Assembly: GCA_046760225.1 (NCBI GenBank)
Contig: JBHIDR010000002.1
Location: forward strand, 1-52,881
DNA from: Candidatus Aenigmatarchaeota archaeon
GTDB lineage: Archaea > Aenigmatarchaeota > Aenigmatarchaeia > Aenigmatarchaeales > JACQIB01
Direction of reading: 5' to 3'
Length of the DNA: 52,881 nucleotides
Shown here: positions 7,064 through 24,355 of the stretch, piece after piece
Layout: each line of letters opens with the position of its first letter
Numbering within the stretch: position 1 is the stretch's first letter
Position numbers and translations under genes: made by a program
The notes under the pieces: model-generated
The model's input: the letters and a program-made list of their open reading frames with translations, nothing else
What the model was told of the DNA's origin: nothing
Databases searched by the model: none

Positions 7064-7777
7064 CTATTTCTTTGCTATTTTCCAGAGCATGTCAAAATAG
7101 TGCTTGTAGGCTTCTGCTGCTGACTTGTTCTTTATGAGCACTGCCTCAGGAGGGTCTGACCACACTATTATGGCTATCTTGTCGCCGTAGATGTTGGTGG
7201 TTGACTGTGACTCGAACTTCTCGTCAAAGTACCTGAGCTCTGTTGTCTTTGAAAGCTGGATCTTCACGCCCCTCCTCACAATGTGCTTCACAGGTATCCT
7301 GTACTTCTCAAGCATCCTTATGAGCTGGGGCACGAAGTAAGGCATCCTTATGTTCAGCATGCCCTCAACATCAAGAACCCTGTTCTCCTTCTTTTCCTTT
7401 ATCATGTCCCTGAAGAGGGTCTGTATGCCCTTGTAGCCATAGAAAAGGGTTACGTTGTGCTTTTCCTTGGGCTCCTTGTAGATCCTCTTCAGCTCAGGCA
7501 TTATGTCCCTTGCCTCGTCCTGCATATTCTTCAGGAAATAAAGCAGCCTTTCAGGCGGGGTGGACTGGTACCACTTCACATTGGCCTTGACCACATAGGT
7601 TACCAGGCCCTTTTCAAGCAGCCTCTTCAGCGCATCGTATGTTGTTGTCCTGTTCAGCGTGCACTGCTTGCTTATCCTTCCTGCCCTGGCCTCCCTGAGG
7701 CGGAGAAGCGCCATGTATACCTTTATCTCTGTGCTGCTGAGGCCTACCCTCTTCAGCACGTCCTTGATGTCTGCCAT
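7064..7777 (-). CDS. TrmB-family transcriptional regulator
   Basis: GLSSTEIKVYMALL..RTTTYDALKRLLEKGLV HTH; C-terminal IYGDKIAII..W. Confidence 0.9.
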   Translation of the reverse strand: MADIKDVLKRVGLSSTEIKVYMALLRLREARAGRISKQCTLNRTTTYDALKRLLEKGLVTYVVKANVKWYQSTPPERLLYFLKNMQDEARDIMPELKRIYKEPKEKHNVTLFYGYKGIQTLFRDMIKEKKENRVLDVEGMLNIRMPYFVPQLIRMLEKYRIPVKHIVRRGVKIQLSKTTELRYFDEKFESQSTTNIYGDKIAIIVWSDPPEAVLIKNKSAAEAYKHYFDMLWKIAKK

Positions 7778-16232: not shown

Positions 16233-16436
16233 ATGGCGAAAAGAATAGCAGCAAAGACAGCAGAGATAATGGTAGCGGAGCAAAGATTAACTTATAAAAA
16301 TGACGAGCTAGTTCAAGAAAATGTGATAACCATTAAAAAATCGACATATCAAAAACAAAGAAATACATATTATTTTAATTCCGATATACTATCGGAACTT
16401 TTTAAATTTTTATTCGAGTATAAAAAACCATGGTGA
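16233..16436 (+). CDS. small AT-rich hypothetical protein
   Basis: 67-aa ORF filling the gap between the MazG-like gene and top6B. Confidence 0.5.
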   Translation: MAKRIAAKTAEIMVAEQRLTYKNDELVQENVITIKKSTYQKQRNTYYFNSDILSELFKFLFEYKKPW

Positions 16437-16451
16437 GGTGATTAGGAAAAA

Positions 16452-18332
16452 ATGACAAAGAAAAGAGAAACGTTCAGGACAGCAGAAGAACTAGCACTCG
16501 AGCAAAGAGCAATCTCTGTGGCTGAATTTTTCGAAATCCTTTGATTGAAAAATCAGGGACGAATTAAGAATCGCCACCTGCTCGGCTTTGACAACCCTGC
16601 AAAGGCTTTGCTCACTGTTGTGCGTGAGGCTGTTGACAATTCGTTGGATGCCTGTGAGGATGCAAGGATACTTCCTGAGATAAAGATAACAGTGCAGGAG
16701 CCAAGGGAAATATACTCTATAATGGATGAAGAAGGCGACATCATAGGCGAGTTCATTGTTGAAGGAAAGAAAGTAAAGTTCATATCAGAAGGCTCGACCC
16801 TGCCTCTGGAGAAAAAGGAAGAAAAACGAAAGGGCAATGTCTATGTGTTTGAAAAGGAAGGAAAGAAGATAAAGGTAAAGGAAATCCTGACTGGTGATGA
16901 AAGGCTGATAGAGGTTTCAAGGGGAAAGACAAAGTACAAGGTAACAAAGGCGCCTGTTGACAGGTTCAAGATAATTATTGAGGACAATGGCCCTGGAATA
17001 GTGAAGGAGCAGATACCGAGCATATTCGGAAGGCTGCTCTATGGTTCAAAGTTCTACAAGCTCAGGCAGAGCAGGGGCCAGCAGGGTGTGGGAATATCAG
17101 CTGCTGTGCTTTATTCCCAGCTCACAACAGGCAAGCCGACCATAATCTATTCAAGGACAGGACCGAAAAAGCCTGTCAACATAATGCACCTGAGAATCAA
17201 TGTCACAAAGAACAGGCCTGAAATAATAAAGGAAGAGACAATGAAAGACGGTTTCCGGGAAAGGGGAGTAAGGATAGACATGGAAATAGAGGGCAAGTAC
17301 ATGAAGAGGTACCATTCTGTTTTCGAATATCTCAAACAGACAGCAACTGTCAACCCATTTGCGCACATCATATTCAATTCACCTGACGGCACAAAGCACG
17401 AGTTCCCAAGGACAGTGAAAGAGCTGCCCAAACTACCCAAGGACATCAAGCCACACCCGCTCGGAGTGGAAGTGGGCATGCTTGAAAGGATGTCAAGACT
17501 GACAAGGACAAGGAATGTTGTGGGTTTTCTGTCGGGTGACTTCTGCAGGGTAGGTCCCGGGACAGCAAAGAAAATTGTTAAGCGAGCAGGAATAAAGGGA
17601 TCAACAAGCCCGAAGGCACTGACACATGAACAGATCAACAAGCTATGGAGGGCAATACATGCAACTGACTTCATGAAGCCTCCTCTTGATTGTCTGAGCC
17701 CAATAGGTTCGGGTAAACTGGAAGAAGGAATGAGAAAGGAATACAGTCCTGAGTTCGTGTTTGCGGTCTCCAGACCACCTTCTGTTTACAGGGGCATGCC
17801 CTTCAAGATAGAGGCTGCAATAGCGTATGGTGGCGATGTATCAAAGGAAGGAGCTGTGAAGATTATGCGCTTTGCAAACAGGGTGCCTTTGCTTTATCAG
17901 GCAAGCTCATGCGCAATAACAAAGGCTGTGCACAAGATTGACTGGAAGCACTATGGTCTTGACATGCACGGAACCACTCCTTATGGTCCTGCTGTTATAG
18001 CAGTTCACATGGCATCTGTATGGATACCTTATACTTCCGAGTCAAAGGAAGCAATAGACCCGTATCCAATAATAAAAAAGGAAATAAGGCTTGCCCTGCA
18101 GGAATGTGGAAGAAAACTGCAGAGATTTGTTTCAGGAAGAAGGAGGGCGCAGGAAGTGCAGAAAAGAATAAGCCTTTTCGAGAAGTACATACCTGAAATT
18201 GCCTTTGCCTTGTCAAACCTTACAGGAGAGAAAAAGGAAAAAATAGTAAAAGATTTTGAAAAGATGCTGAAAAGGGGGAAGAAAGAAGATGAAGAGGTCG
18301 AAAAAGAAAAAGGAGAAGAAGCCAAAGGATAA
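16452..18332 (+). CDS. top6B: DNA topoisomerase VI subunit B, intron-containing (exons 16452-16535 and 16566-18332; 616 aa spliced)
   Basis: GAGGTG SD, ATG 16452; spliced SVAEFFE|KNRHLLGFD; EAVDNSLDA, EDNGPG, QSRGQQGVG, RFANRVPLLY. Confidence 0.93.
16536..16565 (+). other. 30-nt BHB pre-mRNA intron in top6B
   Basis: TTCG/CGAA 4-bp helix flanked by AAA and TTA 3-nt bulges; inner GAAA-capped hairpin; outer exon-exon stem including GTGGC/GCCAC; contains in-frame TGA at 16542-16544. Confidence 0.9.
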
Positions 18333-19494: not shown

Positions 19495-20665
19495 GTGCGA
19501 AATCAATTAGAAAATTTAAATAAAAATAACTCAAATATTTATTGTATGAAAATAATAACTAAGAGCTTTATTCCAACATCTATTGATAAAAGAGTGTTCT
19601 TTTTTGAGGAGCTAAAGGATAAAATCAAAGTTTTTTTCTAAAAGAACTGGAAGCGGAAGTAACCCCAAACCATTTATACTTCCTAAAGAAATTGAAATTG
19701 ATGAGGTTTTCACTGAAGCTGTTGGTTTATATGTTGGTGATGGAAAATTAACAAAAAATGATTTAACACATGCAGGATTTGTAAATAAAGACAAGGATAT
19801 TATAAAGTTCATGTTTCAATTTTTTAGAAATGTAATGAATGTACCTATAGAAAGAATGTGTATAACAATAGGATATAAAAATGAAGACGAAGAGAAAATA
19901 AGAGAGAAATGGTCAAAAATACTTGATATTAATGAAGCAAAATTCAGATTTCAAAAATCAAATAGACATAAATTTGAAACGGTAGATGTTCAGATTAACA
20001 GTTTCGTTTTTAGAGTAATTTTTCAGAACATCCTTGAACATTCCCTACAAGTAATAAAAAGAAATAAAAAGTTAAGAAGAGGGTTTCTAAGGGGTTACTT
20101 TGCTGCTGAGGGTACAATTGGTTTTAAAGAAAAAGATAATTGCATTGAATATATAGGCTTTTCTTATAATCCTTTGGGTGAAGGTTGGTTAAGAAATTTT
20201 TGCATAGATTGTCTTAGAATCGAAGGAATAAAAGCAAAATACAAAGAAAGAGATGGAAACAGGGCAGAAATTATAATTAATAAATGGAAAAATTATTCGA
20301 AATTATGGGAAATTAGAATTTTTGACAGATGTGAAAGAAAAAAACAGAAGTTCACAAAAATACTTAACTCAAGAGAATTTTATTGTAAACTTAATGATGA
20401 ATTTAGACTTGAGTTTTTTGATTCAATAAACCTGTATCAAAGGGATATTGCAAAAATAATAAATTCATGGCAAGGAAATGTATGCAAAACTATACAAGGA
20501 AAACATTTAATGACAATAAACCAAATAAAAAGGCTTATTCCGTATTCAAAATTCTCAAAGGAGGATATAAATAAAAATATAGAAGGTGTAAGAATAGGTA
20601 ATATGAGGGGGTTTGTCTCTGACAAGTATCTTCCTGAGAAAAATAAGGAAGAAGGACTGGATTGA
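19495..20665 (+). mobile_element. free-standing double-motif LAGLIDADG homing endonuclease, frameshifted at T7 run 19631-19637
   Basis: AT-rich; EAVGLYVGDG and GFLRGYFAAEG motifs; GAGGTG SD with GTG 19495; first frame stops 19639-19641, +1 frame continues to 20665. Confidence 0.8.
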
Positions 20666-22789: not shown

Positions 22790-23281
22790 ATGGAAGCTGA
22801 AGTCAAGGAAGACAAGGTTATTGTAGAGGAAGGGGAAGAGCTGTATGAGCAGGGATGGTATGGCAATCTTGAGGGAAAGAAGCTGATACTTGACCTGGTC
22901 GAGGCAGTGCTGCTCATGGAAAGGGCAAAGATAGAGCTCAAGGACATGGACTTCAAGGAGTTCTTCCACTACTGCTCCAAGATTGACCCCAGATTCACAG
23001 CCAGATATGCTGTTTACAGGGACCTCAGGGATAGGGGGCTTCCTGTGAGAACAGGTTTCAAGGGAAGTGATTTCAGGGTTTATGAAAGGGGGGCAAAGCC
23101 GAAAAAGCAAGGGAAGGTCAAGTGGATAGTTTTTGCAGAAGCAGAGGACTATCCCTGTGAAATGGAAAAGCTCGGAAAGGCAATAAAGCTGGGAAAGAAC
23201 ATAAGGGCTGTTGCACTCTGGGCTATTGTGGATAATGATTTAGATGTGACATATTATATAATTAATTCGATTTCACCGTGA
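22790..23281 (+). CDS. endA: tRNA splicing endonuclease, probable structural (beta) subunit
   Basis: LDLVEAVLL, YAVYRDLRDRG, SDFRVY, AIVD..VTYY; no catalytic His. Confidence 0.85.
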   Translation: MEAEVKEDKVIVEEGEELYEQGWYGNLEGKKLILDLVEAVLLMERAKIELKDMDFKEFFHYCSKIDPRFTARYAVYRDLRDRGLPVRTGFKGSDFRVYERGAKPKKQGKVKWIVFAEAEDYPCEMEKLGKAIKLGKNIRAVALWAIVDNDLDVTYYIINSISP

Positions 23282-23286
23282 TTGAT

Positions 23287-23847
23287 ATGAGTGTTATAGA
23301 GACTATCAAAAAAAGAAGGAGTATAAGAAAATTCAAAAGGAAAGAGGTGCCTGAATATATTATAAAGAAAATCTTGAACGCTGCAAGGCTTGCTCCTTCA
23401 GGTAACAATGCCCAGCCTTCAAACTATATCATAATCAAGGATAAGAAAACAAAGGAAATGCTAAAGAAAAACAAGATATTTGTGCAAAATTTGGTGTATG
23501 ATGTCCCATTGATAATAGCATGCTGTGCGAATCCCGATGCTTATCCCAAGACCAAATTTATTGAAGGTGTTGATGACCCTAATGTTGCAAGGGCTTTAAG
23601 AGACCTTTCAATTGCCTCTTCATATCTTGTATTAGCAGCAACAGAACTGGGTCTTGGTTGTTGTTATATAGGATGGATGAACAAGAAAAAGGCGAAGAGA
23701 GTGTTGGGAATACCTAAGAATTTCATCTTTCCTTATGTCATAATATGTGGCTACCCCAATGAAAAAAGGAAAAGGAGCAAAAAGAAGTCTCTTAAAGAAA
23801 TACTACATCATGAGAAGTGGTGGTATGATAAAGGCGCAACTTGCTGA
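23287..23847 (+). CDS. nitroreductase family protein
   Basis: IKKRRSIRKF, AARLAPSGNNAQP, LAATELGLGCCYIG, GYP. Confidence 0.9.
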   Translation: MSVIETIKKRRSIRKFKRKEVPEYIIKKILNAARLAPSGNNAQPSNYIIIKDKKTKEMLKKNKIFVQNLVYDVPLIIACCANPDAYPKTKFIEGVDDPNVARALRDLSIASSYLVLAATELGLGCCYIGWMNKKKAKRVLGIPKNFIFPYVIICGYPNEKRKRSKKKSLKEILHHEKWWYDKGATC

Positions 23848-24355
23848 GGACAGGGTGATTGTATGGGAAAAGAAGGCAGCTGAGAAGCTGTACGGTGAAG
23901 GCACTTTCGGGAAGATGAGAAACGAGAAGCTTGAGCTTGCGCTCATAGAGGCAGCCTATCTGGTTGATAAGGGAAAGATAAAGATTGTTGAAGATAGAAA
24001 GAAGATTGACAAGGAAAGGTTCTTTGATTATTGCAAAAAGCTTGACAAGAGGTTCGATCACAGGTATGCTGTTTACAAGGACCTCAGGGAAAGGGAACTT
24101 GCTGTCAGAACAGGCTTCAAGTTCGGCTGTGATTTCAGGGTATATGCAAAGGGAGTCAGGCCATTGAAGAGGGGTCCAAAAACAGCACGGGAGCACACAA
24201 AATGGGTTGTTTTCGCAGTGCCTGAGAAATATGTTTTCAGCTTTCCAGAGCTGTCCAGGGCAGTGAGGCTTGCGCACAACATAAGGGCAAATATGTTATG
24301 GGCAATTGTGGGAAAGAAGATAAAATATGTTCAGGTTCAGTTTTTTAAACCTTAG
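23825..24355 (+). CDS. endA: tRNA splicing endonuclease, probable catalytic (alpha) subunit
   Basis: LALIEAAYL, YAVYKDLRER, TGFKFGCDFRVY...EHTKW, RAVRLAHNIR; ATG 23825 after GGTGG. Confidence 0.9.
   Translation: MIKAQLAEDRVIVWEKKAAEKLYGEGTFGKMRNEKLELALIEAAYLVDKGKIKIVEDRKKIDKERFFDYCKKLDKRFDHRYAVYKDLRERELAVRTGFKFGCDFRVYAKGVRPLKRGPKTAREHTKWVVFAVPEKYVFSFPELSRAVRLAHNIRANMLWAIVGKKIKYVQVQFFKP

Follow-up and report, generated by a model that had tools for sequence, protein, structure and literature searches.

A predicted bulge-helix-bulge intron in an archaeal top6B gene, with counterparts in other genomes and in other protein genes

In canonical bulge-helix-bulge (BHB) introns of tRNA and rRNA, a 4-bp helix lies between 3-nt bulges and the cuts fall in the bulges (PMC4090602, PMC5829648). 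An intron of this kind is also present in the cbf5 pre-mRNA of Crenarchaeota (Watanabe 2002; Yoshinari 2006; Yokobori 2009, PMC2738675; reviewed in PMC10485636), where it has been linked to a hetero-oligomeric splicing endonuclease, EndA, and is patchily distributed among relatives, with both gain and loss (PMC10485636, PMC2738675). The HVO_1309 mRNA of Haloferax volcanii is cut by EndA and was seen spliced by RNA-seq (Schwarz 2020, PMC7714728; PMC10485636). In the passages drawn on here, the 2023 review names only cbf5 and HVO_1309 as EndA-spliced archaeal mRNAs and expects more (PMC10485636), and the pre-mRNA citations in PMC5829648 and in a 2025 paper (PMC12397907) are to cbf5 work only. 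We describe a 30-nt insert, very probably a BHB intron, in the topoisomerase gene top6B on a 52,881-nt stretch of archaeal DNA (the window). The window is contig C2 of genome G000, a metagenome-assembled genome (MAG) of a Candidatus Aenigmatarchaeota archaeon that comprises 851,505 bp in 83 contigs and is 83% complete. A full-text literature search, subscription journals and supplements excluded, turned up neither a description of a BHB intron in top6B nor any account of several BHB introns in DPANN coding sequences.

A 30-nt insert in the 5' part of top6B

The top6B gene runs on the + strand from ATG 16452 to the stop codon TGA 18330-18332 (window coordinates). As we read it, the gene has the following parts.

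16452..16535, + strand: top6B exon 1, 28 codons, MTKKRETFRTAEELALEQRAISVAEFFE
16518..16577, + strand: whole hBHBh' motif of top6B, its register kept in homologous inserts
16536..16565, + strand: predicted top6B mini-intron (BHB) with in-frame TGA; 10 codons missing in 27 of 29 relatives' loci
16566..18332, + strand: top6B exon 2, beginning KNRHLLGFD, KNRHLLGFDNPAKALLTVVREAVDNSLDA..., and ending with TGA 18330-18332

In the frame set by ATG 16452, translation across the insert, ATCCTTTGATTGAAAAATCAGGGACGAATT, reads ...SVAEFFE-IL(stop)LKNQGRI-KNRHLLGFD, the stop being a TGA at 16542-16544. This interruption of the SVAEFFE-KNRHLLGFD motif, by exactly 30 nt, is as described in the original prediction, which had been made from the letters alone. 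Exon 2 matches Topo-VIb_trans (Pfam, E 3.6e-61) and HATPase_c.

We compared the first 95 residues of Top6B, by tblastn, with top6B loci from 29 further genomes in the order. A gap of 10 residues between FFE and KNRH was observed in 27 of these loci, including that of G001, a member of the same genus (73% identity); the other two gave no usable N-terminal alignment (G012, no N-terminal match; G023, an unrelated alignment only). Because the gap in the relatives corresponds to exactly these 10 codons, the boundaries of the insert are fixed without reference to structure.

The insert and its flanks can be folded into a complete BHB motif, with every element that the original prediction had listed. 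The outer helix pairs 16518-16529 with 16567-16577, including GTGGC/GCCAC, with 6 of the first 8 positions paired; the central helix consists of 4 bp between TTCG 16530-16533 and CGAA 16560-16563; the bulges, 3 nt each on opposite strands, are AAA 16534-16536 and TTA 16564-16566; and the inner hairpin, 16537-16559, has 5 bp, a bulge, 4 bp and a GAAA loop. The minimum-free-energy structure from RNAfold (-17.6 kcal/mol) has the same architecture with the 3' bulge slipped by 1 nt, giving a 3-bp central helix and an AUU bulge, and this slipped register is energetically equivalent to the canonical one. A cut after the second nucleotide of each bulge, a rule derived from the canonical 37/38 position of tRNA introns and the description of the BHB in PMC4090602, yields VAEFFE-KNRHLLGFD. 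This junction is identical to the sequence of intronless relatives and matches their gap exactly, so that frame and motif are restored as had been foreseen.

We scanned the whole genome for strict BHB motifs, for which we required four central base pairs, no more than one of them G.U, bulges of 3 nt and cut sites that follow the second nucleotide of each bulge. Motifs of the quality seen in top6B, i.e. with an inner helix of at least 5 bp and at least 6 of 8 outer positions paired, occur for a length of 30 nt at a rate of 6.5e-6 per given site. Since the boundaries were set independently by homology, and given this rate, the presence of the motif on the insert is not attributable to chance. 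A search of 16300-16800 against Rfam gave no matches at E <= 1, whether to group I/II introns or to other RNA families, and at 30 nt the insert is far too short to be a ribozyme intron.

We also considered that the insert might be an artefact of assembly or sequencing, or a mobile DNA insertion, resembling a miniature inverted-repeat transposable element (MITE), in part of the population. The fragmentation of the MAG into 83 contigs is in keeping with an artefact. However, Logan contigs of four runs span 16300-16800 with 0 differences and 0 indels, these runs representing four samples of one study, two of which may be the source of the genome; the runs holding this DNA are hydrothermal-vent metagenomes. 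No contig lacking the insert was found at >=90% likeness among Logan contigs, and in one short contig, from another organism, the match begins no earlier than 16566, the predicted first base of exon 2. A repeat search found neither a direct repeat flanking 16536-16565 nor terminal inverted repeats, as would mark a transposon or MITE. The same site is, moreover, occupied in other assemblies (see below). Either origin is therefore barely credible.

Same-site inserts and the reading frame of top6B

We searched 371 genomes of the class with a pattern built from exon sequence only (EFFE codons, a gap of 10-90, NRH codons). Nine genomes matched, compared with five matches for a reversed-pattern control. 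In five of the nine, top6B carries an insert at the identical site; the other four matches lie outside a top6B context.

G000, family f1: same-site top6B insert of 30 nt
G023, family f3: same-site top6B insert of 32 nt
G105, family f15: same-site top6B insert of 25 nt
G106, family f15: same-site top6B insert of 24 nt
G090, family f15: same-site top6B insert of 23 nt

A metagenome scan, with a pattern that demanded conserved intron ends, added five contigs, three with known types and two with new 24-nt variants. Applied to wider genome contigs, the exon-only pattern matched at least 120 stretches, mostly by chance in bacteria; among the matches listed, there was one useful locus, L150, identical to the G106 type.

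The seven distinct same-site inserts, 23-32 nt long, all splice by the bulge rule to VAEFFE-KNRHLLG(F/Y). Six of them have all four central pairs, the insert of G090 having 3 bp and a U.U mismatch. The inner hairpins vary in sequence and in length (helix of 5-11 bp), yet all pair, and in G023 a synonymous exon change from TTC to TTT is matched by a change from CGAA to CAAA in the intron. In an alignment of five sequences (MAFFT), 92.9% of 70 cells were paired in register, as against 35.5-63.6% with the partners slid. At 23, 25 and 32 nt, the inserts of G090, G105 and G023 put the reading frame out, and top6B genes of these types would thus be dead unless the insert were removed. As judged from these comparisons, the top6B intron is a member of a family that is found at this position of top6B elsewhere in the class.

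Other irregularities were observed in top6B of two of the genomes surveyed. In G023 (G023:C8:37155-41777; L082, L024), a long, intein-like in-frame insert ending ...HN-S follows ...VDNS, ~34 codons downstream of the top6B intron. The top6B frame of G008 has ~1075 codons.

Had the insert instead broken the gene, the outcome would be a Top6B that starts at TTG 16545 and lacks the 28 N-terminal residues, a pair of polypeptides (one of 30 aa and the remainder) or a pseudogene. Split protein genes are known in Nanoarchaeum, and no RNA run is among the runs holding this DNA to display splicing. In addition, a mechanical list of open reading frames (ORFs) opens top6B at TTG 16545, inside the insert, and calls the frame 16545-18332, a mis-start that the original prediction had expected of gene callers. 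By contrast, a Shine-Dalgarno-like motif precedes ATG 16452, whereas inspection of the sequence found none before TTG 16545.

16432..16441, + strand: Shine-Dalgarno-like GGTGAGGTGA, 10 nt before ATG 16452
16399..16414, + strand: TATA-like A/T-rich stretch TTTTTAAATTTTTATT, 5' of top6B, read from the sequence

The A/T-rich stretch may serve top6B as its promoter. Comparison of codons 10-28 of exon 1 with those of G001 gave 6 identical codons, 11 with synonymous and 2 with non-synonymous changes; on this comparison, exon 1 is under purifying selection and kept as coding sequence. The occurrence of 23-32-nt BHB inserts at the same nucleotide position in four other genomes and several metagenome contigs also argues against breakage, as disruption at random would not strike the same position repeatedly and keep a splice motif each time. 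In the G105 insert, moreover, the sole TTG reaches a TAA after one codon. In addition, top6B is a single-copy gene, with one Topo-VIb match in the genome. We consider it unlikely that the gene is broken.

The insert might alternatively be handled by the ribosome, either through read-through or recoding of the TGA, which would add 10 residues to the protein, or through translational bypass. Bypass is the mechanism of phage T4 gene 60, a topoisomerase subunit gene in which ribosomes skip a short hairpin gap bearing a stop; it needs matching take-off and landing codons in frame. Gene 60 has a hairpin after the stop as the top6B insert does, each in a short gap of a type II topoisomerase gene, and the length of the insert, a multiple of three with a single TGA, would suit either mechanism. 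However, downstream of GAA 16533-16535 the only GAA is that at 16561-16563, and a ribosome hopping from the first to the second would land in the wrong frame, so the in-frame landing codon of gene 60 has no equivalent here, and bypass leaves the conservation of the BHB unexplained. Read-through would place 10 residues within an invariant motif, residues missing in all 27 aligned relatives, and homologous inserts of 23, 25 and 32 nt could not be read. As to recoding, TGA is an ordinary stop in this genome, ending 122 of 301 open frames of at least 300 codons, and in-frame stops aligned to G001 showed no consistent recoded residue. Internal TGAs had been flagged in top6B of relatives; in both loci inspected (L017, L030) they are true C-terminal stops rather than introns or recoding sites. 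A ribosomal solution is very improbable.

EndA, rtcB and further inserts in the genome

Two EndA genes, corresponding to the two PF01974 matches in the genome, lie 6 kb downstream of top6B.

22790..23281, + strand: EndA paralog 1, 163 aa; Pfam tRNA_int_endo_N and tRNA_int_endo
23825..24355, + strand: EndA paralog 2, ~176 aa, in an ORF that opens at GTG 23747; both Pfam domains

Aligned to the structure 1a79, paralog 1 has Gly at the position of His125 and so lacks the catalytic His; it may be the structural (beta-like) subunit. Paralog 2 keeps the Tyr of FRVY and the His of EH(T)KW, has 3iey_A as its best solved relative (E 4.3e-35) and shares the loop insert of that chain; it would correspond to the catalytic (alpha-like) subunit. 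Elsewhere in this part of the window, the ORF after top6A (19811-20665) has a weak match to LAGLIDADG_3 (E 0.0032, below the cut-off). Within Top6B, residues ~84-162 (window 16700-16940) form a family-specific, Lys/Glu-rich insertion of ~80 residues, which is missing in most other families of the order, where matches split into query residues 3-83 and 163-625.

The genome has one rtcB locus (contig C35, 1330-2840; L034/L035), with two inserts. The first (C35:1544-1573) is 30 nt long, in frame, between DGHEGY and GFPIGG, and its removal restores HEGY-GFPIGG. The second (C35:1646-1677) is 32 nt long, shifts the frame, has TAG stops and lies between GGIG and YDINCG (GIGY-DINCG). When both were removed by script, an uninterrupted RtcB of 482 aa resulted. 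RtcB matches were found in 35 of 41 genomes, several with irregular genes: at the site of the second G000 intron, rtcB carries a 30-nt insert with two TAA stops in G008, and a ~1.4-kb in-frame insert in G003 and G004; rtcB of G016 has an internal TAG, and that of G005 and G024 is split near model position 25.

Three more coding sequences of the genome have inserts at conserved motifs. That in the P-loop of aIF2-gamma (C3:19481-19511, 31 nt; locus L077, 19438-22513) restores NIGTVG-HVDHGK when removed and is followed after 5 codons by an intein of 625 aa with a LAGLIDADG domain (Pfam Intein_splicing, 1.5e-23). The aEF2 insert (C46:687-718, 32 nt; restoring IVSH-IHHGK) is at a site homologous to that of aIF2-gamma and is followed by Cys and a 1249-codon frame, in the same arrangement. 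The cbf5 insert (C20:7685-7722, 38 nt; L078; restoring GGTLD-PRVSG) directly follows the catalytic Asp codon. All five inserts in rtcB, aIF2-gamma, aEF2 and cbf5 have four of four central pairs and 3-nt bulges, and restore a conserved motif. Judged on these features of sequence, protein genes of this genome hold at least six introns of the kind, that of top6B included. All six are missing from the congener G001, whose aEF2 and cbf5 were judged only as uninterrupted frames of normal length.

The original prediction had also called for a genome-wide BHB scan of broken coding sequences. Filtered by ORF fusion alone, the scan was uninformative, with 7488 candidates compared with 7400-7665 in shifted-boundary controls, and a stricter version gave 160 matches, mostly false. 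Introns in coding sequences were kept only if confirmed by homology or conserved motifs. Two homology-confirmed BHB matches on contig C1, which at first looked like parts of protein genes, lie in 16S rRNA and were not counted.

The 16S rRNA (C1:42900-46900, L076) is found by Rfam in two pieces, ~1.7 kb apart. The locus holds BHB mini-introns of 33 and 35 nt, and probably another of 41 nt, as well as an ORF for a LAGLIDADG protein (235 aa) and ORFs of 251 and 291 aa without a clear family. At C8:~18544, comparison with G001 shows a 30-nt stop-bearing insert; the stretch around it is highly conserved, has 1-nt "frameshifts" and resembles non-coding RNA, possibly 23S rRNA, with another mini-intron. 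ARAGORN, run with intron search, found only 21 tRNA genes and flagged introns in 13, several of them away from the canonical position. Probably, many tRNA genes are too disrupted for ARAGORN to recognise or are missing from the MAG.

Predicted splicing and comparison with known systems

Several points weigh against splicing of the top6B insert. The stability of the fold is unexceptional (z -1.64); 14 of 200 shuffles fold equally well, and stability alone is consequently not significant. Covariation is weak, with changes on both sides in 2 of 14 pairs and the observed score reached by 65 of 500 shuffles; most pairs are invariant, and the exon strands are constrained by coding as well. The case is therefore built less on formal covariation than on the repeated occupation of a single site by inserts that preserve the motif, and of these the extra metagenome copies are a biased sample. 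In alignment with 1a79 (M. jannaschii EndA), the two EndA paralogs each carry Ala in place of the catalytic Lys156, and with this Ala an active enzyme is not fully accounted for. The gene for the presumed ligase, rtcB, is itself interrupted twice, so that making the ligase would need ligase already present. The genome is a MAG that is 83% complete. Finally, no RNA run is listed among the runs holding this DNA, and there is no spliced read, circular intron or junction peptide.

With these points taken into account, we conclude that 16536-16565 is very probably an archaeal BHB (hBHBh') intron in top6B pre-mRNA. The original prediction is upheld in this by the same-site inserts that keep the motif, selection on exon 1, the presence of two EndA genes and rtcB, and the inserts in other coding sequences, and the unchanged insert in contigs of four runs speaks against an artefact. 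We infer that top6B mRNA is spliced, by enzymology that would follow the established tRNA-splicing pathway. The transcript would begin upstream of ATG 16452, and the VAEFF and KNRH exon codons would pair with each other and with the intron to form two 3-nt bulges 4 bp apart. A splicing endonuclease, probably a heteromer of both EndA paralogs, would cut between 16535 and 16536 and between 16565 and 16566, after which RtcB would ligate the exons and presumably circularise the intron. The mature mRNA would encode a Top6B of 616 aa with an intact N-terminus, ...SVAEFFEKNRHLLGFD..., while unspliced mRNA would yield a 30-aa peptide ending at TGA 16542. Coupling of Topo VI expression to EndA/RtcB activity, which the original prediction had proposed, would be a logical consequence if the intron is spliced, with no regulatory role apparent in the sequence; a selfish or neutral element that is tolerated is the likelier description of the intron than a regulator.

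More tentatively, and with less than even probability in our estimate, BHB mini-introns may form a mobile population that has recently entered six or more essential protein genes in this DPANN genome. They would spread as DNA, perhaps through co-conversion in homing events. Such introns would favour the most strongly conserved motifs, and often positions that coincide with or adjoin intein sites of homing endonucleases: the introns of aIF2-gamma and aEF2 lie 5 codons upstream of an intein, an rtcB intron site is an intein site in G003 and G004, and in G023 top6B an intein follows the intron by ~34 codons. Were this so, replication, translation and the splicing ligase of such lineages would all depend on tRNA-type splicing of mRNA, a prokaryotic instance of intron load in core genes.

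The five additional introns, in genes that include that of the ligase RtcB and those of two translation GTPases, suggest that some DPANN archaea commonly have introns in protein genes. The genes concerned come out of gene calling truncated or split, with top6B started at TTG 16545, rtcB in pieces and aIF2-gamma and aEF2 without their N-terminal exons, and such miscalled genes bias annotation and estimates of completeness. One question posed by the top6B intron is how splicing and coupled translation compete, and the intron offers a compact natural substrate for studying the specificity of a two-subunit DPANN EndA.

Outside the Archaea, protein-only, structure-guided excision of a short mRNA intron, with a change of frame or product, is known for HAC1/XBP1, where IRE1 acts together with tRNA ligase or RtcB. 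There the nuclease is IRE1 rather than EndA and splicing is stress-regulated, whereas no regulation is seen for top6B. With canonical BHB introns the top6B intron shares the motif and, on the proposed route, the enzymes, and this genome also has inserts in 16S rRNA and intron-flagged tRNAs; unlike them, it lies in an ORF, the exon strands of its helix are codons, and a ribosome can arrive before removal. HVO_1309 resembles top6B as an archaeal EndA substrate that is neither tRNA nor rRNA and ends up spliced (a prediction in our case), but it is a different gene, in a euryarchaeon with homodimeric EndA. The closest likeness is to the cbf5 intron of Crenarchaeota: both are short BHB introns within a coding sequence and of patchy distribution, with removal by EndA and a ligase (for top6B, a proposed route), and like the cbf5 type the top6B intron interrupts the frame, here with a TGA, such that the full protein needs its removal. 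The top6B motif is a strict hBHBh', whereas that of cbf5 is called "more relaxed" in the review (PMC10485636). The systems differ further in that the host gene is top6B, the lineage is DPANN-like, there are at least six coding-sequence introns in the genome, including one of 38 nt in cbf5 itself, and the case is known from sequence alone. The top6B intron is conserved, lies in the gene of an essential type II topoisomerase and is of a known kind; what is new is the host gene, and the load of such introns in the genome is unusual.

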